Below, in pieces: positions 1,676-60,538 of a stretch of DNA of 64,000 nt (within the stretch, counting starts at the first letter, position 1; each line of letters starts with the position of its first letter). The stretch spans positions 10,010 through 74,009 of the forward strand of contig SLCF01000051.1 of the NCBI GenBank assembly GCA_007125955.1, in the 5' to 3' direction. The translations under genes and the position numbers were made by a program. The notes beneath the pieces were generated by a model. That model searched no databases. It had not been told where the DNA came from and was given only the letters and a program-made list of their open reading frames with translations. This DNA comes from Bacteroidales bacterium (GTDB lineage: Bacteria; Bacteroidota; Bacteroidia; Bacteroidales; PUMT01).

Positions 1676-3106
1676 TTAAAATCCCATCCTCACTCCTATC
1701 CTGAATCCCGATTTGGATATATCGGATCTTATATCAGTTTTCCAGCTTTCTTCCACTGCAAAAGCACCATACGGATCGGTATACTGATCTGAATAAGTCC
1801 ACTGCGGCGCCATTGGAATCCCCCTCCAGACATTGTGGTAATAACCGGCAGTAACGGAAAAAATATCGGTTATCTTATATCCTGCACTTATGTCGATACC
1901 GTAATTGAATGTCGATATTGTAGTAACGGTTTCAGGCAGATCAAACGCACCTGAAAGGTACTCGTATCCATAAGCGGTTCCCCGGCCTATAAGAATATTG
2001 TCTTCGTCGTAAACCCTTATTTCCGAACTTTCTACTATATCGTCAATATCTATTCCCCTGCCCGAAAAAGTAGTTTCCCCGCTTATTGCAGATCCGAATG
2101 CAGCAAATGACAAATATAAGGAAGGTGTCAGTCTCCATCCCGCTTCCAGTCCGGCAACAGCTCCAAGCGGACTAAAACTGGCCCTTGAATTGGTCTCAAG
2201 TGTTATGTCATTATTAAATGTCTGCGTCTGATACAATACTGCATCAATTGAATCCCCCTCCTCTATTTCAACTCTTTCGCTCCACTTTTCCGTTTGGCTT
2301 ATATGTGCGGTAATATCAAGCCTTTGTCCAAGATTGTCTCTCCAGCGCCCGTAATGTATTCCCCCAATAACTCTAACTTCAATTTCCTCGTTGCTGACAA
2401 CCGGATGTTTTATTGTAAACTTTAAAGAGTTCATTGAGTTCTCACTGTGGACTGTCCATCTTGTATTTCCTTTGTCAGGAAAAAATGTAAGGTCAAAATC
2501 CCCTTCCTCATTTTCATCAAGGTCCCTGAACCCCTCTACCCAGACTGCAGGGAAGCCCCTGCTTGCATGCAGGTCCCATCCCATATTCCAGAAATTCACA
2601 AGCCCGTATCCCAGGCCTTCTGAAGTGTCATCAGAATACTGGTAATATCCAGGCACACTGCCTGAATCCTTCCAGGAAGACGACACGCGGAACCATGAAA
2701 AACCGAAACGGGTATCCCTGTGCGTATAACCCAGATCAATAATAAAAGGGATCTGTGCGCCGGGATTTGTAATTATTGGCGTTATCTCGTCACCGTAATC
2801 TGAACGGATATTCCAGAAAACATCGTCAGGGAGATTGTTCTCATCAACCCACTGATCATCACTATATAGAAACACTTCAGATCCGAGGTTTTTTGAAGCA
2901 CCCCTCACGGTGAAAGTGCCAGGAAAATAGTGAATTCCGAAATCAAAACCGGTAAGGGTTGTTTCACTATCATTAGTAAAAACAGCAGTTTTGTAATTTT
3001 CGCCGGTTTTTTGGTTCAATAATCCTCTAAAGTTACCATGGTCAGCCTGCCCGTAAGCAACGGAAGACATAAATAAGAGTGCCGGTACTACATACTTTCT
3101 TAGCAT
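1676..3106 (-). CDS. outer-membrane beta-barrel protein, family not recognised
   Basis: Signal peptide MLRKYVVPALLFMSSVAYGQ. The ATG at 3106 is preferred over the TTG at 3115. The sequence has alternating aromatic/Gly-rich strands and a C-terminal ...GVRMGF with terminal Phe, typical of BAM substrates. Confidence 0.6.
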   Translation of the reverse strand: MLRKYVVPALLFMSSVAYGQADHGNFRGLLNQKTGENYKTAVFTNDSETTLTGFDFGIHYFPGTFTVRGASKNLGSEVFLYSDDQWVDENNLPDDVFWNIRSDYGDEITPIITNPGAQIPFIIDLGYTHRDTRFGFSWFRVSSSWKDSGSVPGYYQYSDDTSEGLGYGLVNFWNMGWDLHASRGFPAVWVEGFRDLDENEEGDFDLTFFPDKGNTRWTVHSENSMNSLKFTIKHPVVSNEEIEVRVIGGIHYGRWRDNLGQRLDITAHISQTEKWSERVEIEEGDSIDAVLYQTQTFNNDITLETNSRASFSPLGAVAGLEAGWRLTPSLYLSFAAFGSAISGETTFSGRGIDIDDIVESSEIRVYDEDNILIGRGTAYGYEYLSGAFDLPETVTTISTFNYGIDISAGYKITDIFSVTAGYYHNVWRGIPMAPQWTYSDQYTDPYGAFAVEESWKTDIRSDISKSGFRIGVRMGF

Positions 3107-3122
3107 ATTAACCAATTTTTTA

Positions 3123-8653: not shown

Positions 8654-10159
8654 ATGGTAAAAAAGGTTCTTATTGCCAATCGCGGTGAAATTGCGGTGAG
8701 AATAATCAGGTCGTGCAGGGAGATGGGCATATCCACGGTAGCAGTTTTTTCGGATGCCGACAGAAGATCTCTTCATGTTAGATATGCCGACGAGGCAGTC
8801 CACATTGGCCCTTCACCTTCAGCAGAAAGTTACCTGGTTAAGGAAAAGATCATTGAGGCAGCAAAGATTACCGGTGCAGATGCAATTCACCCCGGTTACG
8901 GCTTTTTGTCGGAAAACGCAGACTTTGCCGAACTTGTCCGCAGTGAAGGGATTATTTTCATAGGTCCTTCTGCCGAAAGTATCAGGCTTATGGGCGATAA
9001 GATCTCGGCAAGGAGCATTATGCTGGATGCCGGTGTGCCGGTAGTTCCGGGATCAAGTGAAAAACTTGCCAATAACCGTTCCGCTGAAGAAATAATTAAA
9101 GAGACCGGTTTGCCCGTAATGATAAAAGCTTCAGCCGGTGGTGGCGGGAAAGGGATGAGACTGGTATATAAAGAGCAGGATATAAAAAGTTCCCTGGAAG
9201 CTGCAAAATCTGAGGCAAAGGATGCTTTCGGCGATGATTCGGTATATATTGAAAAATATATTACCAGTCCGCACCACATAGAATTCCAGGTGCTGGCGGA
9301 CAAGTACGGGAATATTATACACCTCTGCGAAAGGGAATGTTCGGTTCAGCGCCGGCACCAGAAAATTGTGGAAGAGACGCCGTCTCCCCTTATGACAGAC
9401 GGGCTGAGAAAAGAGATGGGCAACAAGGCCATTGAAGCAGCAAGGTCGGTTAACTACGAAGGAGCCGGAACAATAGAGTTCCTGGTTGACGACAAGCTCA
9501 ATTACTACTTTCTTGAAATGAACACACGCCTGCAGGTTGAGCATCCTATAACCGAAAGGGTTACAGGTGTTGATTTGGTAAAGGAGCAGATCAGAATCGC
9601 ATCGGGTGAACCCCTCTCATATAAGCAGGGAGATATTTTCCAGGACGGGCATGCAATTGAATGCAGGGTATATGCGGAAGACCCGGGGAATGATTTCATG
9701 CCCTGCCCCGGGAAGGTGGTAAAAATTACCGAACCTATGGGACTTGGGGTGAGGACAGACGGGTATGTTTACGAAGGTTACGAGGTACCTGTACACTACG
9801 ACCCCATGATATCCAAGGTCATTACATGGGGAAAAACAAGGGAAGAGGCAATAGACCGGATGCTGAGGTCATTGAAGGAGTATAACATTATGGGGATAAA
9901 AACCACAATAGACCTTCTTGAAAGGATTATGGAAATACCCCGGTTCAGGGAAGGAAGATACGACACCCATTTTATTGAAGAACACTATGATGAACTGCTT
10001 GGCCCGCGTGACCATACGGAAAAAACAGGGGACCTGGCAATGATTGTTGCTTATCTGGAATATGCCGGCAAAAGAGACCTGATGAAAAACGGGGAATCAT
10101 TTAACAGCCACTCTAAATGGAAAATTGAAAACAGGAGAAAAAACCTTTCGGGTCAATAA
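8654..10159 (+). CDS. accC: biotin carboxylase subunit of a biotin-dependent acyl-CoA carboxylase
   Basis: Start moved to the ATG at 8654 (MVKKVLIANRGEIAVRIIR). ATP-grasp glycine loop GGGGKGMR is present, with EMNTRLQVEHP downstream. Confidence 0.9.
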   Translation: MVKKVLIANRGEIAVRIIRSCREMGISTVAVFSDADRRSLHVRYADEAVHIGPSPSAESYLVKEKIIEAAKITGADAIHPGYGFLSENADFAELVRSEGIIFIGPSAESIRLMGDKISARSIMLDAGVPVVPGSSEKLANNRSAEEIIKETGLPVMIKASAGGGGKGMRLVYKEQDIKSSLEAAKSEAKDAFGDDSVYIEKYITSPHHIEFQVLADKYGNIIHLCERECSVQRRHQKIVEETPSPLMTDGLRKEMGNKAIEAARSVNYEGAGTIEFLVDDKLNYYFLEMNTRLQVEHPITERVTGVDLVKEQIRIASGEPLSYKQGDIFQDGHAIECRVYAEDPGNDFMPCPGKVVKITEPMGLGVRTDGYVYEGYEVPVHYDPMISKVITWGKTREEAIDRMLRSLKEYNIMGIKTTIDLLERIMEIPRFREGRYDTHFIEEHYDELLGPRDHTEKTGDLAMIVAYLEYAGKRDLMKNGESFNSHSKWKIENRRKNLSGQ

Positions 10160-12553: not shown

Positions 12554-13555
12554 CTATACCAGGGTAATTTCCATTTTATCAAAAACATTCTGAATCCTGT
12601 TGAAAACGGTGGTGTTGACACTGCCTGCAAAAAGGAGTCCCACAACCTCATTCTCACTGTTCAGCACAACAGAACCGCTGTCACCCCCTTCACTCATTGC
12701 ACCTGCAATAAGCTGGTCGGTAAAAAGGGCTGTCCTGCCTGCACCAAAACCCACCCTAACGGTAGCATGTACCTGCTCAATCACCCCATTGGTTAGTCCA
12801 GTAGTACGCCCGCTCTTTTTCACCTCCATTCCGAGCTTCCCTTCAGCAACACCCGCAGGGGTGCCAATCTGCAGTATCTCATTTACAACATCATTCTCAT
12901 CAACCGGTTCGGCTATGGCACAATCAACAAGGTTTTCCGTCTGCCGGGTTTCAACTGCAAAAAGACGCATACCGCTGCCCGTAATTCTTGCCATAAAGTT
13001 GAACAGACTGCTGATACCCCTTGCAAAGAAGCACCTCCCGCTCCCGTTTTCAAAACAGATTGGCACAAATTCATACAGTTTCCCAATAGTGTCACCGGAA
13101 ACGGCACCACCATCGTGAGGTCCGGGCTGAAGAATGACATCCCCTGCTTCAGCTTTGTTTGAATTGGCAAGAACATGGTTGTTGGAAAGGATAAAGATTT
13201 TGTCATCCCTCTTTACAAGGCATCCGAGTGTGCCGGCTGTAATGTTGAAATGGCCTGTACTTACACCTCCCGGGGCGGGGCGGAACCTGCCGGTGGGTGG
13301 CTGGCGGACGTGAATCGGTCCGGTTGGATGAACATCTGTAGGGATCCCCCCGAGAAATGGAGGTACAAGCTCCCTTTTGCTGAGACCGGCGGCTGCCACC
13401 TTCGTTTCAACCGAGCATATTATGCAAAGATCATCCGTTGCCTTACCGCCGGTTCTCTTGTAGCCAATGCCTGTTGCCACAACATTGGGCTTTGACATGA
13501 GCATTTGGTTCACTCCGGCCAGTGTTTCCCTTATCTTGCTGAGTGAATTTTCCAT
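12554..13555 (-). CDS. chymotrypsin-fold (S1-like) serine protease without signal peptide
   Basis: The triad occurs in H-D-S order: SNNHVLAN (His127), LVDCAIAE (Asp211), GGDSGSVV (Ser293). No hydrophobic N-terminal signal is present (MENSLSKIRETLAGVNQ...). An ~85-aa N-terminal extra domain precedes the protease fold. Confidence 0.75.
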   Translation of the reverse strand: MENSLSKIRETLAGVNQMLMSKPNVVATGIGYKRTGGKATDDLCIICSVETKVAAAGLSKRELVPPFLGGIPTDVHPTGPIHVRQPPTGRFRPAPGGVSTGHFNITAGTLGCLVKRDDKIFILSNNHVLANSNKAEAGDVILQPGPHDGGAVSGDTIGKLYEFVPICFENGSGRCFFARGISSLFNFMARITGSGMRLFAVETRQTENLVDCAIAEPVDENDVVNEILQIGTPAGVAEGKLGMEVKKSGRTTGLTNGVIEQVHATVRVGFGAGRTALFTDQLIAGAMSEGGDSGSVVLNSENEVVGLLFAGSVNTTVFNRIQNVFDKMEITLV

Positions 13556-20229: not shown

Positions 20230-20805
20230 ATGTCATTTAAACTTCCGGAACTACCTTACGGGCAGAAAGACCTTGAACCGGTCATATCCGCAAAAACAAT
20301 CGAGTTTCATTACGGAAAGCATCACCAGACCTACGTGAATAAACTCAACAACCTTGTTGAGGGAACTAAGTTCGATGGAGCAACTCTTGAAAAGATAATT
20401 AAAGAAGCTGACGGCGGGATATTCAATAACGGTGCACAGGTGTGGAACCACACTTTTTATTTCAGCTCTTTTTCTCCCTCCGGTGGAGGGGAACCTGAAG
20501 GCGATCTTGGCCATGCAATTGAACGCGAGTTCGGTTCTTTTGACAAATTCAAAGAAGAGTTCGAAAAGGCCGGCGCTACCCTGTTCGGTTCAGGCTGGGT
20601 ATGGCTGGTAAAAGATTCGAAAGGCGCGCTTGATATTGTGCAGGAGTCAAATGCGGGCAATCCGCTGAGGAAAGACCTTACCCCGATTCTGACCATGGAT
20701 GTCTGGGAGCACGCCTACTACCTCGATTATCAAAACAGAAGGCCCGACCATCTTCAATCACTCTGGAAGATAATTGACTGGAAAAAGGTTGGGGAAAGGC
20801 TCTGA
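20230..20805 (+). CDS. sodB: superoxide dismutase, Fe-type, cytosolic
   Basis: Metal ligand motifs FHYGKHH and DVWEHAYY are present. The Fe-type discriminators are AQVWNHTFY and NAGNP. No signal peptide is present. Confidence 0.85.
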   Translation: MSFKLPELPYGQKDLEPVISAKTIEFHYGKHHQTYVNKLNNLVEGTKFDGATLEKIIKEADGGIFNNGAQVWNHTFYFSSFSPSGGGEPEGDLGHAIEREFGSFDKFKEEFEKAGATLFGSGWVWLVKDSKGALDIVQESNAGNPLRKDLTPILTMDVWEHAYYLDYQNRRPDHLQSLWKIIDWKKVGERL

Positions 20806-20961: not shown

Positions 20962-21681
20962 TCAGGCCTTTTTAAGCCTTGCAGTCACTTCGTCCCAGTT
21001 AACCACATTCCAGAATGCGGAGATGTAATCACCTCTCCTGTTCTGGTATTTCAGATAATAGGCATGCTCCCACACATCTATTCCAAGTATTGGCTTACCT
21101 CTTTCGTCAGCAACATCCATCAGCGGATTATCCTGGTTGGGTGTAGATGTGACCTTCAGTTTGCCGTCCTGTAAAATAAGCCAGGCCCAACCTGAACCGA
21201 AGCGTGTTGCTGCTGCATTTGAAAAGAGCTCCCTGAACTTATCAAATGAACCGAAATTTGAATTTATGGCTGTAAGAAGTTCGCCGGTTGGCTGACCGCC
21301 ACCACGGGGTGACATAACCTGCCAGAAAAGTTCGTGGTTGTAGTGCCCGCCACCGTTATTGCGGATTGCAACCGGACGGGTTGATACATTTTTCATCAGA
21401 TCTTCAAGGGACTTGCCTCCACCTGGAGCTTCCTTCAATGCATTGTTAAGGTTGTTGACATACCCGGCATGGTGCCGGCTGTGGTGTATCTCCATTGTGC
21501 GTGCATCTATGTGCGGTTCAAGTGCATCATATGAATAAGGAAGATCAGATAGATTGAAATTTTGATTATTGCTGGTATCCATAACTGAATTGCTTTTTAG
21601 TGCCTCTTTAGTCAGTAAGGGTGCTGCAAACAATCCCCCCATTCCCAAAAGGCCGGTTTTTAAAAAAGTTCTTTTATCCAT
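20962..21681 (-). CDS. sodA: superoxide dismutase, Mn-type, with N-terminal Tat-like (KR) export signal
   Basis: [23 protein letters not shown] resembles a twin-arginine motif with KR in place of RR. The Mn-type discriminators are [11 protein letters not shown] and NQDNP. Ligand motif DVWEHAYY is present. Confidence 0.8.
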
Positions 21682-47876: not shown

Positions 47877-48572
47877 ATGAAGCAAAAAGATATAGTTTTT
47901 ACTCTTGCAACCATTGCATTCTTTCTCGCTTTTATTCTTTACCGTCCTCTGCTTGAAGCATACCGGGATTTTAACCTGCAACACGGTATGGTTAGCAGTT
48001 TCCTGAAGTTTGCAATACTTGCCACACTGGGTGAGGTTATCGGACTGCGAATTAAAACGGGAAAATATAACAGGCCCGGCTTCGGGATATTGCCCCGTGC
48101 TGTTGTCTGGGGAGTAATAGGACTGACAATACAGATGGCATTTATAATATTTTCATATGGAACCCCGGCGTTTCTGGAGTATCTTGGACTGGAAGGAAGC
48201 TATGAAATGTTGAATGATAAGGGACTGACAGCCGGCAAAATTCTTGTTGCATTCTGCATCAGTGTGGCAATGAACATAATCTATGCCCCCGTAATGATGA
48301 CCACGCACAAAATAACCGATACACATATTGAAACCAAAGGGGGAACGCTGAAAGGACTTTTCAGTCCGTTAAAAATGGGAGATATAATGGCCGGGATCAA
48401 CTGGCGTGTGCAATGGAGTTTTGTATTCAGGAAAACAATACCCCTTTTCTGGATCCCGGCCCATACAATAACTTTCCTGCTGCCCGCCGAATACAGAGTG
48501 CTCTTTGCAGCCCTTCTGAGCGTTATGCTTGGGATTTTCCTTGCCGTTGCAGCAGTGCTGGGCAGGAAATAA
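47877..48572 (+). CDS. hypothetical integral membrane protein
   Basis: 231 aa with several TM helices and no recognised family. Its last 11 codons and stop lie inside the left 48-bp direct repeat. Confidence 0.6.
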   Translation: MKQKDIVFTLATIAFFLAFILYRPLLEAYRDFNLQHGMVSSFLKFAILATLGEVIGLRIKTGKYNRPGFGILPRAVVWGVIGLTIQMAFIIFSYGTPAFLEYLGLEGSYEMLNDKGLTAGKILVAFCISVAMNIIYAPVMMTTHKITDTHIETKGGTLKGLFSPLKMGDIMAGINWRVQWSFVFRKTIPLFWIPAHTITFLLPAEYRVLFAALLSVMLGIFLAVAAVLGRK

Positions 48573-48585
48573 TATTTTATCAAAA
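48538..48585 (+). repeat. left copy of a perfect 48-bp direct repeat
   Basis: tccttgccgttgcagcagtgctgggcaggaaataatattttatcaaaa is identical to 53961-54008. It contains the palindrome CAGCAgTGCTG, the stop of the 47877..48572 gene, and the terminal Phe codon plus stop of the opposing OMP gene. Confidence 0.95.
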
Positions 48586-49824
48586 GCTGTATTTCAGCTT
48601 AATATACACCATGTCATTATCACTGTACTGGCCGAACCTTCCTTCTTCTCCGATAAATATATTTGCTCCTCCAAGCACTTCAAATGCATCTGCAAAATCC
48701 CACGTTATTTTCGGGCGTATAAGTGCATCCTCATTATTAAAGCCGGTATATGCAAATAACTCGAGCCGGAGCTTTTCACGGAAAAAATCCTTATTTGCCA
48801 TAAATGTCATTGTAGTTTCAAACTCATCATTTTGAATATGAGCATCATAATCCAGAATATATTCCTGTATGAACTGTGAGCTCAGGTTTACCCCTCCAAT
48901 TGTAAAATCTATACCGGCCATATAATGCAGGTAATTTTTTTTAACAACTGCATCAGGCACTGCAGGGTCGGTTGTCTGGAAATACCTGCCGGAATAATAA
49001 CCTCCTTCCCCCCTGAGAACAAACCTTCCTACCGGCTTACTGAAGCTGCCACCTGCCATTGAAACCCTGTGATATTGTGGAGATACGGTCAACCCAGTTA
49101 TATTACCCGTTGCGGGATCCAGTTCCCTTTCCATATGCAGGGCAGGATCATCGTACCAGAAATATCCTCCCACAAATTCCAGATCGGCCGATGGTGACAT
49201 CAAAGAGTAACGCAGGAATATCTCGCTGTTTTCAACTGACGGTTTTACATCCGAGAGTGAATGGTCAAACTGCGGAGGCACCGGAAAGTCCATCTCCGGG
49301 CGCCATATGGAACCTTCCCCCGGCATTTTGGTCGCTGTAAAAACCGGTGCCCATACTGCTTCAACAGTATTCATTCCAAAATAATAATTTGCTTTTACCG
49401 AGGTCACTCCCATCCTTATTTCCTCAAAATCGGGTAGCAGAAACTCCCTCATGTCTTTCGGGGAAACCACATCGGTTATGAACACCCCGTCAGCCTTGCC
49501 CCAAATTATCTGTTGCCTGCCGACACGCAGATCAATATTGTCAAAATAGATGTCAAGGTATGCTTCCCTTAGTCCTATTTCCGGCTCATTATCAAAGTAC
49601 TGGTAGAAGTATGGATTTACCCTGAAGGCGATATTGTCGCCTCTTTTAGATAAATTGATATTCAATGTATTCTGAAGTATTGAAAGCTCTCCTCCTTCCG
49701 ATGTAAGGACACCGGTATAGTTTCTGGCATATCCTCCTATACGGAGCTCATCACCGAACTGCGTATAGGAAGGAACTGTAAAGATTGCCGTTATAAATGA
49801 TATGAAAATAAATTTTTTCAGCAT
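48580..49824 (-). CDS. outer-membrane beta-barrel protein (DUF1302-like)
   Basis: Start moved to the ATG at 49824 (MLKKFIFISFITAIFTVPSYTQ signal peptide). The RVGRQQIIWGKADG motif is present and the C-terminus reads ...KLKYSF. Confidence 0.7.
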   Translation of the reverse strand: MLKKFIFISFITAIFTVPSYTQFGDELRIGGYARNYTGVLTSEGGELSILQNTLNINLSKRGDNIAFRVNPYFYQYFDNEPEIGLREAYLDIYFDNIDLRVGRQQIIWGKADGVFITDVVSPKDMREFLLPDFEEIRMGVTSVKANYYFGMNTVEAVWAPVFTATKMPGEGSIWRPEMDFPVPPQFDHSLSDVKPSVENSEIFLRYSLMSPSADLEFVGGYFWYDDPALHMERELDPATGNITGLTVSPQYHRVSMAGGSFSKPVGRFVLRGEGGYYSGRYFQTTDPAVPDAVVKKNYLHYMAGIDFTIGGVNLSSQFIQEYILDYDAHIQNDEFETTMTFMANKDFFREKLRLELFAYTGFNNEDALIRPKITWDFADAFEVLGGANIFIGEEGRFGQYSDNDMVYIKLKYSF

Positions 49825-49861
49825 AATATTTGTATTTACCGTTATTCCATTTTCCAAAAAA

Positions 49862-50716
49862 TCAGATACCCTGCATCATACTTCTTTCCGTGAACATTCT
49901 GTCTGCCAGCCCCTGATTTATGCTTATATTCGTGAACTTCATATTTGTAGTATGCTCTCTCTGTACATTCTTCATCTCAGTTTCAAGAATGGTCCAGAAA
50001 CCGTCAATCTGATCATAATCCTTTATTTGAAGTGTTTTCAGGTGACGCCCCCTCTCATCATAGAATTCCCGTTTCAGTCCGAGTAGATTATCTTTCATAA
50101 CCCATGTTACGGTTTTCGAGTACATATAATCGCTCTCTTTGGGAGTGCTCTCTACAACCCAGCATTCCCTGCCGTCAATTGTCTCTTCACCTGTCAGCTC
50201 ATGATTATCTTCATCAGGGTGGCGCTCTCCAAGATCGTCGTAAGTAAAATCGGATCCCATAAAATAGTCGCTTTTCCCGTCGCTTGAGATCCTTCTGATC
50301 CTTTTAAGGGCGGGAAGATAGATCCACTGGTCATCGTCACTGCCGTCAGTGTAGCTCCAGTTCATAAAAGAGGTACCCTTCACGTCAGCGGGAGAAAGAA
50401 AGAACATTATCCTCTTTTCAACTTCACCGTCATCTTTGATATACTGGCGCAACTCCCTTACACGTCTTTCACCCTGCCTGTTGATAAGGGTCATCGTCAG
50501 ATCTCCCTGCATATCATCACCTGAAGGGTTGTGGTAAACCTTCTCCATTATCTCCTGTCCGATTCGCTGTGCCAAAGCATTCTGTGAGGATAATAATCCC
50601 AAAGAAAACATCAGAGTTGCCAGAAGAAAAATCTTATTTATCACTCCTGGTTCAGCATAGGCGAGCCCTGCATCTTTGCAGTTTGTGTTTCCTGCATTTA
50701 AATTGTTGGTTTTCAT
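49862..50716 (-). CDS. outer-membrane lipoprotein-sorting (LolA-like) family protein
   Basis: Start moved to the ATG at 50716, which is preceded by AAGGAGG. The motif QWIYLPALKRIRRISSDGKSDYFMGSDFTYDDL is typical of the LolA_like family. Confidence 0.75.
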   Translation of the reverse strand: MKTNNLNAGNTNCKDAGLAYAEPGVINKIFLLATLMFSLGLLSSQNALAQRIGQEIMEKVYHNPSGDDMQGDLTMTLINRQGERRVRELRQYIKDDGEVEKRIMFFLSPADVKGTSFMNWSYTDGSDDDQWIYLPALKRIRRISSDGKSDYFMGSDFTYDDLGERHPDEDNHELTGEETIDGRECWVVESTPKESDYMYSKTVTWVMKDNLLGLKREFYDERGRHLKTLQIKDYDQIDGFWTILETEMKNVQREHTTNMKFTNISINQGLADRMFTERSMMQGI

Positions 50717-50804
50717 CTTAAATTCCTCCTTAATTTTAGTTTGTATTATAATTATTGATTTTGTGATTATCTGAATACGAAAGCCTGCAGTCCGTTTTAA
50801 CAAT

Positions 50805-53111
50805 CTATTTTTTGACAGTTTCACCCTGTCTGTTAGCAAACACCCTGAATGTATAGATCAGGATCATCATTATTGTAAGTGTTCCAAGCAGACTGGTGAA
50901 CATGTTCATTGATACCAGCGCACCAAGCGTACGGTTGGGTGGAAATACAGAGAACAGGAGCACCAGGAAACCTGCAATAACCACAACGGCATTGAACAGA
51001 ATTGCCTTACCGGTCTGACCCATTGTCACATGCAGTGCATCCTGACGTGATCCGCTTTTTGAGATGTTCATCCTGTAATTTTGGATAAAGTGGATCGCAT
51101 AGTCAATTCCGATCCCGATGGCGATACTCGAAAGCAGCGCTGTTGTTGTGCTGAGCGGAATATTAAGCAACCCCATCACCCCGAAGCTTATCAGTGCTGT
51201 TATTGAAATTGGTACCGCACCGATCAGACCTGCTTTTATACTGCGGAACATCAAACTCAGCAGTATAAGCACCAGGATAAGCGTAATCCCGATGCTTAGT
51301 ATCTGGCCCTCCAGTATCAGGCTTGTAAAAACAAGTGCTTTGTATCCCGATCCCGCGTAATTGATCTCAATCCCGTGTTCTGCGAACTGATCCTCAAAGC
51401 CTTTGATCACAGAGAGTGCCTCATTGATTGTTTTTGAATCATCACCCTTCAGCTGGAAAGTCACATTGGTGCGGTTATAATCGTAATTTACCACCTTTAG
51501 AAGGTTTTCCGGGTCACCCGACATCTCATACAGCAGCAGGTATTGAGCAACCATATCGCTGCCTGAGGGTATGGTATAATACTCATCCCTGTCCTCGTTC
51601 ATAACCTTGTTCATCCGTTTCAGATAGTCGGCAAGAGAAAATGAATTGCCGACTTCGGCAAGTTTTTCGGTCTCCTTCTGCATGGTGTCCATCAGGTGCA
51701 GATATTCAGGCTGCTTGAATGCATCGGCGCTTTCGCTCTCCAGTATTACGTTGAGCGCAGAGGTGCCACCGAACTTGCTGTTCACAAATGCATCGGTCTG
51801 AACGATATCACTGTCCTTCTCGAAATTATCGAGGAAACTTGAGTTTATCCACAACCGTTGCAGTCCGAAAAGTGAAACCAAAACAACCACTGCCACCACA
51901 GAGTAAACCCACACCCTATTTTTCAGCAGATTGTCAGCCACAACATTCAAAATGCTATCATTCAAAAAATCGCCGGTTCCCGACCTCTTCTCACGGGGTT
52001 TATACCCAAACAGCATAACTGCTGCAGGCAGAAAAACCAGAGCCAGTACAAACGCCGAGAATATTCCAAATGCTGTAAAGACACCAAAATATTTTATGGG
52101 GTACACCTGTGATGTGAGAAGCGATATAAAACCTATCATCGTGGTGAAAGCCGCCATTGCCAGGGGTTTCCATAGTATCCCAAGGGTGTAACGTATTGCT
52201 TCATACCTTGATGTGTCAGGGTTTTTCAGGTAATACCGGTTCAGATGGTTGTAGAAATATATTCCATAGGCTACCCCTATCGCAATGAGCATTACCGGTA
52301 TCATTGTCGAGACCGAGTAGACAGGGACATTGAACACAGACATCAGTCCGAATGCCCATATCGAGCTTATAAAAACGCTCAGCAATGTTGCCCCGGCAGC
52401 CCTGTAGCTGCGCAGCAAAAGGAACAGAACAACAGCTATTACCACAAGCACCAGGGGAACCATCTTTTTCATGTCTGCCGGACCGAGAAGCGCCATTGTG
52501 CCCTCGACAATTGGCCGGCCTGCAACGTATATTACTTCATCTTCACTTTCAAAGGAGTGAGCGAAATCCATTATTTCCCGGTAAAACTCCTGCGTAAAAT
52601 ATTTGCTGTCCATTCCCGCAACTATCAGTGCCACCGTTTCATCTTCCGAAACCAGTCGCCGGTACACCATATCATTATCCCTTACATCCAGCCTGAGCTC
52701 CTCAAGTCTTCCCGGAGCGGTGGGAATACGCGTGTAAAATGACCTGACATCCAGGCCCCATTCATCTCCGGTGATATTATCGGCCGACCAGAGGGACATC
52801 ACATCATTGGCATCAAACTCCTCCATATCTTCAAGGGCATCTGTGATATCCCTGATCTTTTCGAGGGTCCGGGGATTATAGATACCTGACCTGTTCTCAA
52901 TGGCAATCAGGATCCCATCCCTGATATTGAACCACTTCTCTGCCTGGTTACTGTAAATAAAAGCAGGGTGTTCTGAAGGCATATACTCATCGAGGTTTGT
53001 TTCCATCCTCGCATTTTTAATCATGGTACTCAGGAACCATATGCTTAATATCAGCACCGATAACATTGTCAGCCATGCCAGGCCTTTCAGCTTTTTTTTG
53101 TCGTTTTGCAT
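50805..53111 (-). CDS. MMPL/RND-superfamily exporter (HpnN-like, 12 TM)
   Basis: 768 aa built from two 6-TM bundles, each preceded by a large periplasmic loop. Confidence 0.8.
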   Translation of the reverse strand: MQNDKKKLKGLAWLTMLSVLILSIWFLSTMIKNARMETNLDEYMPSEHPAFIYSNQAEKWFNIRDGILIAIENRSGIYNPRTLEKIRDITDALEDMEEFDANDVMSLWSADNITGDEWGLDVRSFYTRIPTAPGRLEELRLDVRDNDMVYRRLVSEDETVALIVAGMDSKYFTQEFYREIMDFAHSFESEDEVIYVAGRPIVEGTMALLGPADMKKMVPLVLVVIAVVLFLLLRSYRAAGATLLSVFISSIWAFGLMSVFNVPVYSVSTMIPVMLIAIGVAYGIYFYNHLNRYYLKNPDTSRYEAIRYTLGILWKPLAMAAFTTMIGFISLLTSQVYPIKYFGVFTAFGIFSAFVLALVFLPAAVMLFGYKPREKRSGTGDFLNDSILNVVADNLLKNRVWVYSVVAVVVLVSLFGLQRLWINSSFLDNFEKDSDIVQTDAFVNSKFGGTSALNVILESESADAFKQPEYLHLMDTMQKETEKLAEVGNSFSLADYLKRMNKVMNEDRDEYYTIPSGSDMVAQYLLLYEMSGDPENLLKVVNYDYNRTNVTFQLKGDDSKTINEALSVIKGFEDQFAEHGIEINYAGSGYKALVFTSLILEGQILSIGITLILVLILLSLMFRSIKAGLIGAVPISITALISFGVMGLLNIPLSTTTALLSSIAIGIGIDYAIHFIQNYRMNISKSGSRQDALHVTMGQTGKAILFNAVVVIAGFLVLLFSVFPPNRTLGALVSMNMFTSLLGTLTIMMILIYTFRVFANRQGETVKK

Positions 53112-53115
53112 AATT

Positions 53116-53139
53116 ATGTTTGTTAATATTAACTAACTT
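53116..53139 (-). promoter_or_regulatory. second TetR-operator-like site just upstream of the MMPL gene
   Basis: The minus strand reads AAGTTAGTTAA-TA-TTAACAAACAT. The left arm is identical (11/11) to the operator at 53793-53816 and the right arm matches 8/11. Confidence 0.4.
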
Positions 53140-53173
53140 TAGTTGTTAAAAAAATACCATCATTGAGAGGGAA

Positions 53174-53770
53174 TTAAGTAAGGTTTTGATTTTTAATTAA
53201 AAGTTTAACCGAATTTATCAGTTTCTGTCCTTCTTTTTCAAGTTTAAAGTTGTATCCTGAGAACTGCCATTGTTTAACGAAAAGACGAAGTGACCCCATA
53301 ATGATTATTGCAATATGACCAGCCTCCAGATCATTCCTTATTTCTCCTTCTTCCTGTCCAGTCACAATGATTTTTCTAAGTATCTGACTGTTCCGGTTTA
53401 TAACTTCGGCAATCTTTTCAATCAGAGCCGGCTCGCTGCGGAATATCTCCTCCGAAAAGATAACTGACACCAGTGTGGGATTTTCGGCAAACTTTGAAAA
53501 ATGTTGTGAGAACAAGTACTCTATTTTGTGAATAGCTCCAGAATCACTCTGCAACGTATCTTCGAAAATACTACCTGAACTTTCTTTGAACAGATCAAGT
53601 ATTTTTAGAAGAATCTCTATTTTATTTTCATAATGCCGATATATTGCCGGTTCGCTTATACCAATCTTTTTTGACAGGTTCTTAATAGTAAGACCCTGTA
53701 TACCTTTTTGACTGATGAGGTCAAGGGCAGTATCAAGAATTTCTTTCTGGCGTTCGGTTTGCATGGTCAT
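53174..53770 (-). CDS. TetR/AcrR family transcriptional regulator
   Basis: N-terminal HTH reads LTIKNLSKKIGISEPAIYRHYENK. Confidence 0.9.
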   Translation of the reverse strand: MTMQTERQKEILDTALDLISQKGIQGLTIKNLSKKIGISEPAIYRHYENKIEILLKILDLFKESSGSIFEDTLQSDSGAIHKIEYLFSQHFSKFAENPTLVSVIFSEEIFRSEPALIEKIAEVINRNSQILRKIIVTGQEEGEIRNDLEAGHIAIIIMGSLRLFVKQWQFSGYNFKLEKEGQKLINSVKLLIKNQNLT

Positions 53771-53790
53771 TGATTTTTAATATTTCATCA

Positions 53791-53816
53791 CAAAGTTAGT
53801 TAATGTTTACTAACTT
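53791..53816 (-). promoter_or_regulatory. candidate tetR promoter -7 box overlapped by a 24-bp palindromic operator
   Basis: The palindrome AAGTTAGTTAA-TG-TTTACTAACTT (53793-53816) has arms matching 10/11. The minus-strand TAACTTTG (53798-53791) matches TAnnTTTG. Both lie ~20 nt upstream of the tetR ATG. Confidence 0.5.
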
Positions 53817-53918
53817 GCCAAATATTTTACTGATTTTTTTCAAAATATTTACATCTTTTTAATTCTTTTCTGCCAACATATTGTTTAACAAGCTTTATAG
53901 TTTATTTCCAACGTGTCA

Positions 53919-53995
53919 GGAATATTCACGGCAACATTGCTTAGTGCCTTGCTGAAGGTCTCCTTGCCGTTGCAGCAGTGCTGGGCAGGAAATAA
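53919..53995 (+). pseudogene. remnant of the 3' end of a diverged homolog of the 47877..48572 membrane-protein gene
   Basis: The translation GIFTATLLSALL compares with RVLFAALLSVML in the intact gene, with synonymous-type codon differences. A 1-nt frame slip follows. The sequence then runs into the identical LAVAAVLGRK* coded by the right repeat. Confidence 0.45.
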
Positions 53996-54008
53996 TATTT
54001 TATCAAAA
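53961..54008 (+). repeat. right copy of the perfect 48-bp direct repeat
   Basis: It is identical to 48538-48585. The flanking bases differ on both sides (t/c before, g/a after). Confidence 0.95.
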
Positions 54009-54020
54009 AAAGGTTTCCGT

Positions 54021-55790
54021 TTAGAAAGGCCAGATCATCATTATCATGGGCACACCCACCACAACTATTATCACTTCCAGGGGAAGTCCCATACGCCAGT
54101 AATCGGTGAATTTGTAGCCGCCCGGACCCATAACAAGGGTGTTGGACTGGTGGCCTATTGGTGTAAGAAAGGCACAGGAGCCTCCCACAGCCACGGCCAT
54201 AAGGAAAGGGTCTGCCGAAAAGCCCATTCCGTTTGCCACACCTATGGTAATAGGTGCCATCAAAACAACTGTGGCGGCATTGTTTATTATATCTGAAAGG
54301 AACATGGTAACTACAAGAATAACGGTAAGTATAAACCAGGGAGGGAAGGTGTCACCAATGTTCAGTATATTTTTAGCTATAAGCCCTGCCCCTCCGGATG
54401 TTTCCAGGGCATTGCCCACGGGTATCATAGCCCCGAGGAGAATAATTACAGGCCAGTCAATGCTGTTATAAAACTCCTTTAAAGGGAGAATACCGGACAG
54501 AACCATTATAACAGCTGCTATTCCAAAGGCGATTTGCACGGGAAGCAGTCCGGTCAGAACCGTTACAATTGCAGCAGCAAATATGCCCAGGGCCAGGGGG
54601 ATCCTGGTACGGTATCCTATGCGCAGGTCTCTTCGGGCCAGGGGAAGGCACCCCATGGAGGTTATTGTGTCAGAAAGCATATGTTCCCTTCCCTGCAGCA
54701 GCAAAACATCCCCTGCACGAAATGTGACATGGTCAATCCGTTTATGCATTTTTCTTTCCCGCCTGGCAACAGCCAGCAGGTTTATCCCGTAACGGCTTCG
54801 CATCCTCATGCTGGATGCTGTCTTCCCTGCAAGTGGAGAATCCGACATCACAACCGCTTCCGTAATAGCGATTTTTTCAGAACCTTTGGCATCTTTTCTG
54901 AATTTCTTCCCTCCCACAAGAGTGGTTTTGGTATCCTTGACGAATGTTTTCAGCTCTTCTGCATCTGCTTCCACAATAATAACATCCCCCGGCAGCAGAG
55001 GCTCATCGGGATCAGGTGCATGAATCCTTTTCCCTTCACGTACAATACCGAGTACGGCAACATCAGTTTTGGAAATCTCAGCTATTTCGGCCACACTTTT
55101 TGAAGCAACACGGGAATCCTTTTTAACCTCCACTTCAGTTATATAATCATCTACATCAAAAAGCTCCGAATCTGACTTTTGAGCAGCCCTCCTTGGCAAA
55201 AGCCTCCAGCCCAATAAAGTTATAAAAGCGATACCTGCAATTGCAATAACTCCGCCTACAGGTGAAAAATCGAACATGCCAAACGGCTCTCCAAACTCCT
55301 CGCCACGAAAAGAAGCAATTATAATGTTGGGGGGAGTCCCTATTAAAGTTGTCATTCCACCGAGAAGGGAGGCAAATGCAATAGGCATAAGTATATATGA
55401 GGGAGGGTTTCCACTTTTCCTTGCCATATGGATGGCAACGGGCATCATTATTGCAAGTGCCCCAACGTTGTTCATGAAAGCGGATGCAACAGCAACAATA
55501 ACAGACAAAGCCATGATCTGAAGCAAAAGGTTTTTCCCGACATTCATAACCCATTTGCCCAGAAGGTCAATCAGGCCGGAATGTTCAAGGGCTTTGCCTA
55601 TAATCAGCACAGCGGCAACGGTAATTACCGCAGGATGTGCAAAACCGTCGAATGCATCTGAGGGTTCAATTATTCCGGCAATAACAAGAATGAAAAGTGA
55701 GATAAGTGCCGTAAGATCGTGCCGTATCCCCCCCCATGCAAACAAGGCCAGTGCAAGAAGCAGTACTCCGAATACCAGGCTGTGATCCAT
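54021..55790 (-). CDS. SLC13/DASS-type anion permease with two central TrkA-C domains
   Basis: 589 aa. Two cytoplasmic TrkA_C-like repeats (ITEVEVKKDSRVASKSVAEI...GDVIIVEA and ITEAVVMSDSPLAGKTASS...GDVLLLQG) sit between the TM bundles. Confidence 0.8.
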   Translation of the reverse strand: MDHSLVFGVLLLALALFAWGGIRHDLTALISLFILVIAGIIEPSDAFDGFAHPAVITVAAVLIIGKALEHSGLIDLLGKWVMNVGKNLLLQIMALSVIVAVASAFMNNVGALAIMMPVAIHMARKSGNPPSYILMPIAFASLLGGMTTLIGTPPNIIIASFRGEEFGEPFGMFDFSPVGGVIAIAGIAFITLLGWRLLPRRAAQKSDSELFDVDDYITEVEVKKDSRVASKSVAEIAEISKTDVAVLGIVREGKRIHAPDPDEPLLPGDVIIVEADAEELKTFVKDTKTTLVGGKKFRKDAKGSEKIAITEAVVMSDSPLAGKTASSMRMRSRYGINLLAVARRERKMHKRIDHVTFRAGDVLLLQGREHMLSDTITSMGCLPLARRDLRIGYRTRIPLALGIFAAAIVTVLTGLLPVQIAFGIAAVIMVLSGILPLKEFYNSIDWPVIILLGAMIPVGNALETSGGAGLIAKNILNIGDTFPPWFILTVILVVTMFLSDIINNAATVVLMAPITIGVANGMGFSADPFLMAVAVGGSCAFLTPIGHQSNTLVMGPGGYKFTDYWRMGLPLEVIIVVVGVPMIMMIWPF

Positions 55791-55853: not shown

Positions 55854-57392
55854 CTATATTACCATGGAATAAACAACCCCTATCACTCCAATTGATGCAA
55901 GTACGTATACCACTTTTGCCGGCATGACCCCCTCACTCTCCGCAGTTTTACCGAAAATCCAGAAAACAAGGGGGTGAACAAGGAAGGGCATTGCAAACAC
56001 AAAAGCGATAATTGCAGAGGCATGTTCACCGAACATACCGCCCTGTATGGCGGCAAAGAGACCGAAATGTGAAATTGCAGATGCATTGGCCATAACCGAG
56101 TCATTCAAACCCATTCCTGTAATGTTCAATATGAACAATCCACCGAAAACAGCTACAAGCTGCCACCCCAGGGAAAATATCATCAGACCCCTTATCTCCT
56201 TCGATTCGACATTATCAGCCTTTCTTAATATCCTTAATGCCAGTGCTGTAAGCGCAACCCCGGCAGCTACAACTATTATTGTGTGCGGAATAAGTAATTT
56301 TCCGGCAGTAGCACTTGCAGCCAGAATGGAAAAAACAAATATGTGGCCAATGAAGGGGACATTGATCATTATGGGAGCCCTGTACTGTGCATCGGGACCA
56401 AGGTCACCGGCAGTACAGGCACCGGTCAGTCCGGAGTGCGACAAAGAACCGGCCATCCCGGGAGCCAGGTTCCGCATATGATTTGCTTTTCCGATAAGTA
56501 TTAATATTGCCAGTCCGCCAAACATCCACATAAGCTGCCCGAAAAATCCGAAAGATAATACAGATGTCATTCCCTGAAGTATGAAGGCATCGGCGATCCT
56601 TGAACCCCCTACCATAAAGTTTGCTGCAAGAACCACAGGGATACCTGCGAACAGGAGGGAGCGGATGGTCGGGCCGAATTTCCAGCGGGAGAAGATCATC
56701 CCCATTATCACTGCCAGTATCATCACGAAAAATATCTCCGGCAGTGCAATTACCGGTCTTATCCAGTCGGATATGTGCCATGAAAGGACAAGAATCCCGA
56801 GGATAAATGCGGTTTCAGCAATTCCCTTACGGATATACACGGGTTTGTTGGTGATCTTGGCCCTGTAATCGATCAGAATAATTGAAGCTACTATTCCGAT
56901 ATATCCCAGAAGAGGATAAAAGACATCCAGCGGTTCGTTGCCGCTGTGTCCTACTATGACCCGTTTCAATGATTCAATCCCTATCAGAACAAAGAAGGAA
57001 CGTATAAGGAACATGAACTGGGTAAACTTGGTACCAAGGAACATCTCCTCGTCCGAGGGCACCACAATGTCTTCCTTGTCTATCTCCTGATTACTTATTA
57101 GCTTCTTTATCTCCTGGCCGCCGACGAAAAATGAAGCGCTCAGCGCGGTTATGGTTACTTTGCTTGTGAAATCAATTATGGGAAACTCACTCAGTCCCGG
57201 TGTCCCGAGTCCGGTCGACTGCAGGACATATCCCATTATCAATCCGAACACTACAATAATCAGTATGGGTGAATAGCGTGTTCCCGCAACAAAAGTACGG
57301 GAAACAAGCACCATCGTTATTACCATAAGAAATGTAAGCCATAGCTGGTTAAGTATGTGGGCATTTGCCATCTGGTCAGATAAGTAATCCAT
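55854..57392 (-). CDS. uncharacterised polytopic membrane protein (possible transporter)
   Basis: 512 aa with at least 12 hydrophobic segments and no family recognised. It lies 63 nt upstream of, and co-directional with, the SLC13 gene. Confidence 0.55.
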   Translation of the reverse strand: MDYLSDQMANAHILNQLWLTFLMVITMVLVSRTFVAGTRYSPILIIVVFGLIMGYVLQSTGLGTPGLSEFPIIDFTSKVTITALSASFFVGGQEIKKLISNQEIDKEDIVVPSDEEMFLGTKFTQFMFLIRSFFVLIGIESLKRVIVGHSGNEPLDVFYPLLGYIGIVASIILIDYRAKITNKPVYIRKGIAETAFILGILVLSWHISDWIRPVIALPEIFFVMILAVIMGMIFSRWKFGPTIRSLLFAGIPVVLAANFMVGGSRIADAFILQGMTSVLSFGFFGQLMWMFGGLAILILIGKANHMRNLAPGMAGSLSHSGLTGACTAGDLGPDAQYRAPIMINVPFIGHIFVFSILAASATAGKLLIPHTIIVVAAGVALTALALRILRKADNVESKEIRGLMIFSLGWQLVAVFGGLFILNITGMGLNDSVMANASAISHFGLFAAIQGGMFGEHASAIIAFVFAMPFLVHPLVFWIFGKTAESEGVMPAKVVYVLASIGVIGVVYSMVI

Positions 57393-58775: not shown

Positions 58776-60035
58776 TCAGGTATGAACTGTTATAATCTCA
58801 TTTATATTGGTTGTGTAGCGGGGTGAAAGCTTTTCCTGTTTCATTTTCCAGACCCTTTTCAGGTCCTGTGCCGCCAGCTTCACTTTCTGCTGGCCGAGCA
58901 GTCCGTTTATCCTGTCAACAGCCTTCATTAAGGGAATGTGGCGGGGGTTGCCGTTGGCGAATATATTGAGCTGAATATTGTCTTCAGGTGTAAAATCCAT
59001 TGTTATCACTCCCGCCTTTTTATAATAATACCCCTCCCTGAATATTTTTTCCAGCGCCCGGTTTGCAAATTTCACCAGTTCTATGCCTGAGTTTGTGGGA
59101 AAAGGAAGTTTCACAACTATGTTCCTCCCGTATTGCGGCAGGTCGGGGCGGTGCCTGTTGCCGTAAACAAAAACAATAAGGGTGTTGCAGCAGGAGCCCT
59201 GACTCCTGAGCTTTTCGGCACATGACACCGCAAATGTGGCAATGCGCTCCTTCAGCTCGGAGAGCAGGGTGTAGTTCCTTTCAAAGGTGCGGGTGGTGGC
59301 AATGCTTTTGCGGGGTTGCACCTCTTCCAGGCCGAGCGTGGGTATTCCCTGCAGGTCATGCTTCAGCCGCAATCCCACCACCGACATCATTCTTCTTACC
59401 CGCTTATCATCTATCCGTGTAAAATCAAAAGCGGTGTTTATGTTCATGGATCTCAGCCTTGCCGAATGCTGCCTGCCTATACCCCACACATCCTCAACGG
59501 GAAGCCACCTGAGAGCTTTAACACGTTTTTCCTCGCTGTCGATAAGATAAACGTTCCCTGTCCGTCCGGGGAATTTCTTGGCTATACGGTTGGCCACCTT
59601 GGCAAGTGCTTTGGTAGGGGCTATACCCACACTTATGGGTATCCCCGTCCACTTCCCCACCCTTTCGTGCATACGGGTTCCAACCGCCTGCAGGTCGAAG
59701 TTCTCAAATCCCGTGAATTTCAGGAACGCCTCATCTATGCTGTATATCTCCATTTCAGGTGAAAATTCTCCGGCTATACTCATCACCCGGCTGCTCATAT
59801 CCCCGTAGAGGGCAAAGTTGGCCGAAAAAACATGCACATTGTGTTTTCTGAAAAGCTTTTCATATTTGAATGCAGGGGCCCCCATCGGTATCCCCAGTGC
59901 TTTGGCCTCGTTGCTTCGGGCAATTACACAACCGTCGTTGTTGGATAGCACAACAACAGGCTTGCCTGTGAGACCCGGGCGAAATACCCTCTCACATGAA
60001 GCGTAGAAGTTATTGCAGTCAACCAGCGCGAACAT
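58776..60035 (-). CDS. umuC: Y-family translesion DNA polymerase (UmuC-like, Pol V catalytic subunit)
   Basis: [20 protein letters not shown] is present, with SIDEAFL as the catalytic carboxylate motif. The start directly abuts the umuD stop. Confidence 0.9.
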
Positions 60036-60485
60036 TCAAAAAGATTTAATAACATGTGTTACGATCCCCCATATCAGGAGCTCATTTTCGGGAGTCACTT
60101 TAACGGGTTTATAGCTTTCATTGGCAGGCATAAGCCAGCAGGTATCCTTTTCCAGTTTGATCCTTTTAACGGTAAACTCCCCGTCAATATAGCAGACCGC
60201 TATTTTGCCGTCTTCGGGCTCGAGGCTCTTGTCTATCACCAGCAGGTCGCCGTCGCTGATCCCTTCATCCTTCATGGAGTACCCTTTCACACGTCCGTAA
60301 AAGGTGGCGGAAGGGTGCTTAACAACGTGCTTGTTAAGATCTATCGTCAGGTCTATAAAGTCAAGCGCGGGAGAAGGGAAGCCGGCACTTATACCGCCCG
60401 GGACAAGTGGCAGCTCCAGCTCCGTTTCAGCAGCTGCGGAGTAAATGTCAAGAACCGTGGAACTATGAAGTTTCAGTGCACTCAT
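60036..60485 (-). CDS. umuD: UmuD-like S24 peptidase (no DNA-binding domain)
   Basis: Ala-Gly cleavage site in ISAGFPSPA. Nucleophile Ser in GYSM and general-base Lys in FTVKRI. The protein is 149 aa. Confidence 0.85.
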   Translation of the reverse strand: MSALKLHSSTVLDIYSAAAETELELPLVPGGISAGFPSPALDFIDLTIDLNKHVVKHPSATFYGRVKGYSMKDEGISDGDLLVIDKSLEPEDGKIAVCYIDGEFTVKRIKLEKDTCWLMPANESYKPVKVTPENELLIWGIVTHVIKSF

Positions 60486-60538
60486 ACGGTTTCATTTAAT
60501 AACAGGTCCGGGACAGCCGGACATGTAAAGGTATAATA

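Follow-up and report, generated by a model that had tools for sequence, protein, structure and literature searches.

The 64-kb window analysed here (contig SLCF01000051.1, positions 10,010 to 74,009) is a metagenome-assembled stretch from an uncultured soda-lake sediment Bacteroidales bacterium. It contains a four-gene block that lies directly behind a membrane-protein gene, here called X, and is bracketed by a perfect 48-bp direct repeat. All coordinates are those of the window, and L-numbers label the loci and contigs that were compared with it. X (47877–48572, plus strand) encodes a 231-amino-acid (aa) Mpv17/PMP22-like membrane protein with a weak PF04117 match, and is the last gene of an Rnf/TspO-like/X run to the left of the block. 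More than 6700 homologues of X occur in Bacteroidales and allied metagenome-assembled genomes, some of them named Mpv17/PMP22 family by NCBI, and the C-terminus YRVLFAA.LG..LG.FLAVAA is near-invariant across the family. The right conserved flank is a gene for an SLC13/CitMHS di-/tricarboxylate-type permease (54021–55790, minus strand; PF03600, 6.6e-88), which converges on X.

All four genes of the block are on the minus strand. The first gene of the operon encodes a TetR/AcrR-family repressor (53174–53770; PF00440, PF08359) with many homologues at 82–94% identity. It is followed by an MMPL-type RND-superfamily inner-membrane transporter of 768 aa (50805–53111; PF03176, 3.4e-50; PF00873, 1.5e-9), an AmeB-like periplasmic protein of the LolA-like/DUF1329 (TP_0789-like) type (49862–50839; PF17131, 3e-69; PF07044, 5e-16), and an AmeA-like DUF1302 outer-membrane beta-barrel protein (OMP) (48580–49857; PF06980, 1.8e-13) that ends in KYSF before its stop codon. 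Gene callers place the start of the LolA-like/DUF1329 gene at 50716 (284 aa; a called gene in L001). Upstream of tetR lies the operator-like palindrome GTTAGTTAATGTTTACTAAC (53795–53814), which occurs once in the window; its half-sites GTTAGT and ACTAAC are invariant in all five aligned cassette promoters, and it is probably the TetR operator. With PF06980, PF17131/PF07044 and PF03176/PF00873 on three consecutive genes, plus TetR, the cargo is predicted to be a TetR-controlled Ame-like export operon. Family membership would suggest a role in the export of hydrophobic or lipid compounds across the envelope.

Relatives of this cassette are found in unrelated contexts (L090–L093). Over the MMPL region the DNA identity is about 90% to L090 and 88% to L092 and L093, and homology of the four loci to the window spans only ~48579–53860, with the right end at 53830–53860. 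L092 ends in ...TACAGTTTTTAA, and its homology to the window cassette stops at that OMP stop codon. Neither the 48-mer nor an X-like sequence accompanies these relatives, and the close ones carry extra Cupin_2 and 247–305-aa genes that are absent from the window. A JGI contig (L096, SL_9KL_010_SED) corresponds to window 52749–53860 and ends exactly where the L092/L093 homology ends, a coincidence which may mark 53860/53861 as the cassette's true right edge. Between operator and tetR a small membrane-protein open reading frame (ORF) is present in L177 (4101–4358; 85 aa, weak DUF4405 match, E = 6e-4), L090 (~110–183) and L091 (~9810–10000); it is absent from the window (site 53767), L092 and L093, which makes a clean ~200-nt indel. 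Toxin-antitoxin-type genes follow the cassettes of L090 (6549–8800; PIN, HTH, HipA_C) and L092 (17087–19541; AAA_14/DUF4143, DUF433/DUF5615), suggesting that the cassette tends to lie in accessory regions elsewhere too.

The 48-bp direct repeat

The 48-mer TCCTTGCCGTTGCAGCAGTGCTGGGCAGGAAATAATATTTTATCAAAA, with the core TTCCTTGCNGTNGCNGCNGTNCTGG, occurs exactly twice in the window, both times on the plus strand and with 0 mismatches, and the copies start 5423 bp apart. It was found 0 times in 100 shuffles and is the only long perfect repeat within the 64 kb. The left copy (48538–48585, plus strand) stands between GGGATTT and GCTGTATTTC, the right copy (53961–54008, plus strand) between GAAGGTC and AAAGGTTTCC, and the flanking bases differ on both sides. 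Two nucleotides (nt) of a Phe codon, ten codons (LAVAAVLGRK) and the TAA of X, a 7-nt spacer and TCAAAA make up the left copy. On the minus strand TCAAAA, the last 6 nt of the 48-mer, encodes the C-terminal Phe and the stop of the DUF1302 gene. The original prediction had described the two identical copies with their differing flanks, the end of X with its stop codon, and the OMP terminus on the opposite strand, all of which hold; the number of X codons is ten, not the eleven it counted. The right copy is non-coding here. It is separated from the SLC13 coding sequence by a short spacer, which together with the SLC13 stop codon occupies 54009–54024.

The possibility that the repeat is an assembly artefact, the assembler having woven a circle or a strain variant into the chromosome through a short shared k-mer, has a negligible probability. 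In its favour, the window is metagenome-assembled, and the contigs of one sample break inside the cassette (L002, L094). However, the repeat recurs in at least five independent assemblies. The block with both copies is present at 99.9% identity in PWIS01000173 (L001/L178), PXFE01000518 (L003/L180) and SKRN01000087 (L179), and both junctions are found at this identity in at least four further assemblies from different samples. The sister lineage described below, although diverged, has both junctions too. The left junction is crossed by a MEGAHIT k = 141 contig of ERZ27301263 (L002). The right copy alone is also present in L094 and L095, and L185 (ENA ERZ27301262), compared at the level of gene order, has the same order as the window.

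Logan contigs end exactly 30 nt inside the repeat, L182 and L183 from the SLC13 side and L187 and L188 from the OMP side. A k = 31 de Bruijn graph breaks at true repeats of at least 31 nt with divergent flanks. The Logan contigs, which we take to have been built with k = 31, break as expected for a real repeat, and their ends indicate a true repeat of at least 31 nt. The junctions shared by other assemblies and this pattern of breaks exclude mis-assembly for practical purposes.

In the one sample with broken contigs (ERZ27301263), both contigs of the locus break near the 5' end of the MMPL gene: L002 ends at window 53166, and the last 438 nt of L094/L181 (ERZ27301263 k141_234253) correspond to window 52673–53110. 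The tail of L094 shows only 88% protein identity to the window MMPL, and a paralogous cassette (L091; tetR 82% identical at the nt level) is present in the same sample. These breaks could reflect recombination between cassette paralogues or a local chimeric assembly.

The X-like gene end and the sister lineage

From ~53860, where homology to the cassette relatives ends, a non-coding stretch (53861–53960, plus strand) runs to the right repeat. Its 3' part (~53901–53960, ..SGIFTATLLSALLK..) is a decayed X-like gene end. The 36 nt preceding the right copy translate to GIFTATLLSALL in one frame. The proposal that this is the decayed 3' end of an X homologue gains no support from the window alone, in which the resemblance to X was not above chance (local alignment, p = 0.4–0.7; anchored alignment, p = 0.2–0.3) and the position-specific scoring matrix score was negative, yet within the top 0.45% of random 14-mers. 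The window remnant is frame-shifted by a 1-nt deletion relative to a sister lineage. Its similarity is non-significant because of this deletion and becomes significant once the sister lineage fixes the register.

The sister lineage is represented by two short Logan contigs from one run (SRR31660265), L004 covering the left side and L177 the right. In L177 the remnant reads in frame as GIFTATLLGALLKVFLAVAAVLDRE, and its translation GIFTATLLGALLKVFLAVAAVLDREQ aligns with RVLFAALLSVMLGVFLAVAAVLGRK at the end of X, where the stop codon follows. An ungapped alignment anchored on the core gives 28/60 matches to X in the 60 nt upstream, compared with a mean of 14.8 for random window segments (p = 2e-4), and the L177 core matches the X end of L004 at 35/40 positions. 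This comparison shows the remnant to be homologous to the 3' end of X, and the proposal stands. In the sister lineage the remnant lacks a stop codon, having CAA instead. It is a non-coding fossil, some 100 nt long, at the TetR end of the islet. The locus therefore has the arrangement of an orphan gene end, with an intact X, foreign DNA and then a non-functional fragment of the X 3' end, and the layout originally described (intact X and core, cassette, X-like end and core) is real.

Identity of the remnant to X is stepped, with 47% upstream and 88–100% in the core. This could reflect repeated homogenisation of a shrinking 3' zone or, equally, an arm of foreign origin that received a new core in the original crossover. 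Over 56 nt of the remnant, 3 substitutions and 1 indel separate the two lineages. No homologue of 53861–53900 was found in any fetched locus, and the stretch 53861–53960 had no other DNA match in 188 loci. Homology of 53861–54025 to the spacer between the peroxiredoxin and SLC13 genes of L005 was considered and rejected, the sole shared word being the 11-mer TTGTTTAACAA (p = 0.1).

The two lineages are well separated. Identity between sister and window is 93–96% for X, about 93–96% for SLC13 and ~89% for P512, and their flanking genes are 4–13% diverged. The left junction of L004 is as in the window (X stop, TATTTTA, OMP stop and codons), except for 3 synonymous changes, all among the 48-mer's first 17 nt. 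On the right side, L177 contains tetR, the extra small ORF, the operator, ...CCAACGTGTCAGGAATATTCACGGCAACATTGCTTGGTGCCTTGCTGAAGGTTTTCCTTGCCGTTGCCGCCGTGCTGGACAGGGAACAAACGTCTTACGGTCA and then SLC13. The cassette and the X-like fragment are at the same site in the sister lineage, which shows that both predate the split and places them in the common ancestor.

The right copy itself is another matter. In L177 it lacks 14 nt, ATAATATTTTATCA, of the window 48-mer, and 5 of the 34 aligned positions differ between the right copies of the two lineages. The window right copy matches the window left copy at 48/48 positions and shows 3 differences from the sister left copy. Paralogous copies within the genome (48/48) are closer than orthologous copies across lineages (29/34 plus the indel), and this grouping of the window right copy with the left copies is the signature of gene conversion. 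Divergence between window and sister amounts to 12/50 positions plus the 14-nt indel in 53961–54024, compared with 16/332 in the adjoining remnant and SLC13 end (Fisher p = 4e-5). Repeat position 14 is C in both sister copies and A in both window copies, as a single mutation and a subsequent conversion would produce. High identity begins at almost the same left boundary in the two lineages, and 3 of the 5 sister-specific differences are transitions unique to L177. The perfect 48-mer is specific to the window lineage and would on these comparisons be a derived state.

The cassette edges (53586–53766 compared with L177; 48555–48633 compared with L004) are slightly closer between the lineages than the flanking genes are, in a small sample. 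The tetR 5' end (53586–53766) differs from L177 at 4/181 positions, and the 3' 48 nt of the OMP gene are identical. The locus may have been exchanged between the lineages after their split. At the left junction L004 and the window share an identical run of 79 nt, which was considered as a sign of recent cassette exchange and is not decisive; it is only the third-longest in 10.6 kb, where local identity is ~95%.

Origin of the repeat and the slot behind X

The explanation we regard as probable, though only modestly so, is that the block is a resident chromosomal islet in which an old insertion scar and a recent gene conversion created the perfect 48-mer of the window lineage. One old recombination event would have set the cassette against the X stop codon, either as a single crossover through an X-like arm beside the cassette or as an insertion or displacement that duplicated the X end; either origin would leave an X-like end beyond the cassette. 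The 5' part of this fossil would then have decayed freely, while its 3' 40–50 nt stayed similar to the live X end and were re-copied by RecA-type gene conversion. The latest conversion, in the window lineage, would have had a tract of at least 34 nt (53974–54007) and at most ~50 nt, and would also have carried over the X TAA, the 7-nt spacer and the first 6 nt met at the OMP gene end, giving the perfect 48-mer. The right copy contains the OMP-derived TCAAAA, which indicates that it was copied from the already-formed left junction and postdates it. The repeat looks like a scar shaped by concerted evolution, not a functioning attachment (att) site.

Several points weigh against this explanation. 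The apparent polarity of change comes from one sister lineage only, and L004 and L177 are taken to derive from the same genome. A conversion that relies on only ~25–35 nt of imperfectly matching sequence should seldom occur. The step in the remnant from 88% identity in the core to 47% upstream allows either of the two readings given above. Between the right copy and SLC13, the 7/16 positions of 54009–54024 that differ between the lineages, where the SLC13 stop is TAA in the window and TGA in the sister, the last residue is F or L, and the flanks are ~5% diverged, are not accounted for by copying from the left junction, nor by decay of the sister right copy from a primary repeat. There is also a minor but real chance that the perfect repeat was retained from the original event and that the sister copy acquired the 14-nt deletion and decayed.

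As a primary product, the perfect repeat would stem from a Campbell-type single crossover of a circle that carried ~50–100 nt resembling X, or from an illegitimate insertion that duplicated a long target; we consider this unlikely. The window lineage would have kept the repeat, and the sister right copy would have decayed by 5 substitutions and the 14-nt deletion, a course of events to which we likewise give a low probability. Decay in one lineage is plausible for a non-coding copy, the L177-only transitions are compatible with it, and the nearly equal left edge of high identity in both lineages points the same way. However, for a primary repeat both copies (2 x 48 nt) must have stayed unchanged up to the split and afterwards in the window lineage, against the 3 substitutions and 1 indel in 56 nt of the adjacent remnant, and the sister must have had a local 5-fold excess of change at exactly this patch (p = 4e-5). 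Parallel changes at position 14 are needed as well, and the segment duplicated must have taken in 6 nt from the OMP gene that was arriving. Displacement by homology-facilitated illegitimate recombination (HFIR) is a poorer candidate. A donor X with its cassette would be anchored by X/Rnf homology and joined illegitimately in the 3' region of the recipient X, orphaning the old X end, and the 48-mer would be homogenised later; we find this origin quite improbable. The remnant is real, and an intact gene, new DNA and an orphan 3' end match the model for Vibrio type VI secretion system (T6SS) arrays and Rhs loci (PMC5361080). Against it, the upstream remnant is no closer to the X of cassette-free relatives (25/60 for L005, 21/60 for L088) than to the resident X (27–28/60). 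A donor in which X already abuts the cassette is required, an arrangement that was not found among the fetched loci, and a later conversion is still needed for the stepped identity.

An integrase-less islet, one of the readings offered in the original prediction, would have the 48-mers as attL and attR, a core, perhaps its palindrome, recognised by a recombinase encoded elsewhere, and the remnant as an attP arm. This appears quite improbable. A duplicated gene end whose X-like arm lies towards the element is indeed the layout of 3'-end integration, with direct repeats derived from the target at both ends (48/48, the last 10 codons and stop of X); three different cargoes begin right after the X stop in the window, L005 and L088, and cassette relatives lie in several unrelated contexts. 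Yet an att core should be conserved wherever the element is integrated, and the sister right copy matches its own left copy at only 35/40 positions, is 14 nt shorter and lacks the palindrome, so that the 48-mer fails as a conserved core. Nor is it pure target DNA, since it includes 6 nt of the cargo OMP gene. The palindrome CAGCAGTGCTG is present in the window 48-mer and absent from L004 (CCGCTGTGCTG), L177 (CCGCCGTGCTG), L005 and L088; it is a by-product of Ala-codon choice and does not qualify as a recombinase core. The other cargoes (L005, L088) have no X-end remnant or repeat at their bounds.

Searches for the machinery and the footprints of a mobile islet were equally negative. As predicted, the enclosed genes are of the DUF1302, LolA_like/DUF1329, MMPL and TetR types, and no recombinase, transposase or excisionase was found among ORFs of at least 150 aa in the 64 kb by Pfam scans and the precomputed Pfam tables of matching contigs; ORFs without any Pfam match lie at 1676–3115, 12554–13555, 55854–57392 and 60054–60536. 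No recombinase was found beside the cassette relatives either. Mobility of the block as a unit also finds no support in its distribution: every contig with an identical X (8), SLC13 (9) or OMP (8) protein carries the block, so that none of them offers an empty site or an alternative context, L005 and L088 carry other cargo instead, and the relatives elsewhere are without the repeat. There were 0 matches to the exact repeat 31-mer in JGI metagenomes and to its 30-mer in IMG/VR, and blastn of 48400–54100 against plasmids and phages gave no match. No foreign composition was seen, the block having a GC content of 0.426 against 0.446 and a tetranucleotide distance that ranks 18th of 59 equal-sized chunks. 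A transposon or insertion sequence does not fit, as there is no transposase, no inverted repeats lie at the block ends, and the duplication is 48 bp instead of the expected 2–14 bp. By eye, the 48-mer contains no 11-6-11 dif-like motif for Xer recombination, no Bacteroidota dif model having been scored.

Two further roles for the repeat were rejected. Cumulative GC skew peaks at 48.5 kb, but skew follows gene strand throughout the window and gives no signal of a replication terminus or dif site. As a terminator or structured RNA the 48-mer has fold z-scores of -1.1 to +0.5, its hairpin is unconserved in L004 and L177, and a consensus terminator scan was empty.

The position behind X is variable among relatives. 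L005 (X 88% identical at the aa level) keeps Rnf-TspO-X and SLC13-P512, and a 503-aa protein and a 1-Cys peroxiredoxin replace the cassette. In L087/L088 (X 78%) another gene set lies between X and P512, and SLC13 is absent; the L088 slot holds DUF1573, DUF5128 and small ORFs. The slot extends over 48573–54020 in the window, 7528–10247 in L005 and 10700–14040 in L088. Window homology in L005 and L087/L088 ends at the X stop codon and resumes at SLC13 (54025 for L005) or at the P512 end, which identifies the slot after X as a variable locus. Its three cargoes contain no mobility genes, and no X-end remnant or repeat was found in the cargo of L005 or L088 or beside the cassette relatives. A UmuC/UmuD-like (IMS + S24) translesion-polymerase pair, at 58776–60035 (minus strand) with an adjacent Peptidase_S24 gene at ~60.0–60.5 kb, serves in L088, the relative with 78% X identity, as the conserved anchor to the right of the variable region; the Peptidase_S24 assignment comes from the L094/L178 annotation.

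Synteny is confined to the close relatives. In X-homologue searches of genome and metagenome contigs, the relatives among the matches listed had at most 74% and at most 69% identity, and their X genes are not beside Rnf, SLC13 or cassette genes. None of the neighbouring genes accompanies X in the 160 loci fetched from more distant relatives. A 78% SLC13 homologue (L184) was rejected as syntenic context, not being syntenic, and the 503-aa cargo protein of L005 proved unrelated to P512. It is conceivable, if very unlikely, that the X 3' end is a reused docking site at which an unlinked recombinase or a ~40-nt-homology pathway shuttles integrase-less cassettes. If true, this would explain why three cargoes abut the X stop, and the 48-mer would be the freshly regenerated core of the latest exchange.

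Elsewhere in the window, two Fe/Mn superoxide dismutase genes converge (20230–20805, plus strand; 20962–21681, minus strand), the second having a ~40-aa N-terminal extension that is possibly an export signal.

Related systems and biological meaning

Orphan 3' gene ends at Rhs, contact-dependent inhibition (CDI) and T6SS effector-immunity loci have been attributed to HFIR (PMC5361080; de Vries and Wackernagel, 2002, as cited there). The X locus shares with them an intact gene, new DNA and a stranded 3' fragment, with no dedicated recombinase needed, and in both cases the short retained homology permits later homologous recombination. The X locus differs in that the gene is a housekeeping-type membrane protein instead of a polymorphic toxin, the orphan end is single, the cargo is an export operon in the opposite orientation, and neither a donor nor an illegitimate junction was recognised. 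Genomic islands in gene 3' ends likewise have direct repeats of the target 3' end that bracket foreign DNA and leave the target gene intact. Unlike such islands, the block has no integrase, excisionase or other mobility gene, its repeat is unconserved in the sister lineage and includes cargo DNA, and neither an empty site nor a second location was found.

Concerted evolution of short dispersed repeats proceeds by general RecA-dependent ectopic conversion. The window repeat resembles such cases in the closeness of its within-genome copies (48/48) relative to the orthologues (29/34 plus an indel) and in its sharp identity boundary. It differs in the unusually short tract, with ~25–35 nt of imperfect homology 5.4 kb away, and in that direction and timing are inferred from a single sister lineage. 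Read as an insertion scar modified by gene conversion in a variable slot, the locus adds an example of known processes and does not represent a new type of element.

The component set of the cargo is known from AmeABCD, the monoterpene efflux system of Castellaniella defragrans, which combines a DUF1302 OMP, a DUF1329/LolA-like protein and an RND-superfamily pump (PMC6394551). Pseudomonas, too, has these components in gene sets that are cofit on Tween and fatty esters (bioRxiv 10.1101/2020.07.04.188060). The window operon shares these three components with both and also has a TetR regulator. It differs in that its pump best matches Pfam MMPL, no AmeC/BNR-type fourth component is present, and the host belongs to Bacteroidota.

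The locus carries a caution, since a perfect gene-end direct repeat around accessory genes mimics attL and attR. One sister lineage sufficed to show that the perfection of this repeat is recent and local, and gene conversion acting on an old scar can cause such perfection. As originally proposed, a recombination event that joins the two copies would, in principle, remove the block cleanly, and a rare RecA-mediated clean loss of the operon by homologous recombination is the only likely consequence of the repeat. The comparison further describes, in uncultured soda-lake Bacteroidales, a small variable slot that lies between the Rnf-TspO-X run and SLC13/P512 and swaps whole operons without a visible mobility gene, and it places an Ame-like DUF1302/DUF1329/RND export operon in Bacteroidota.

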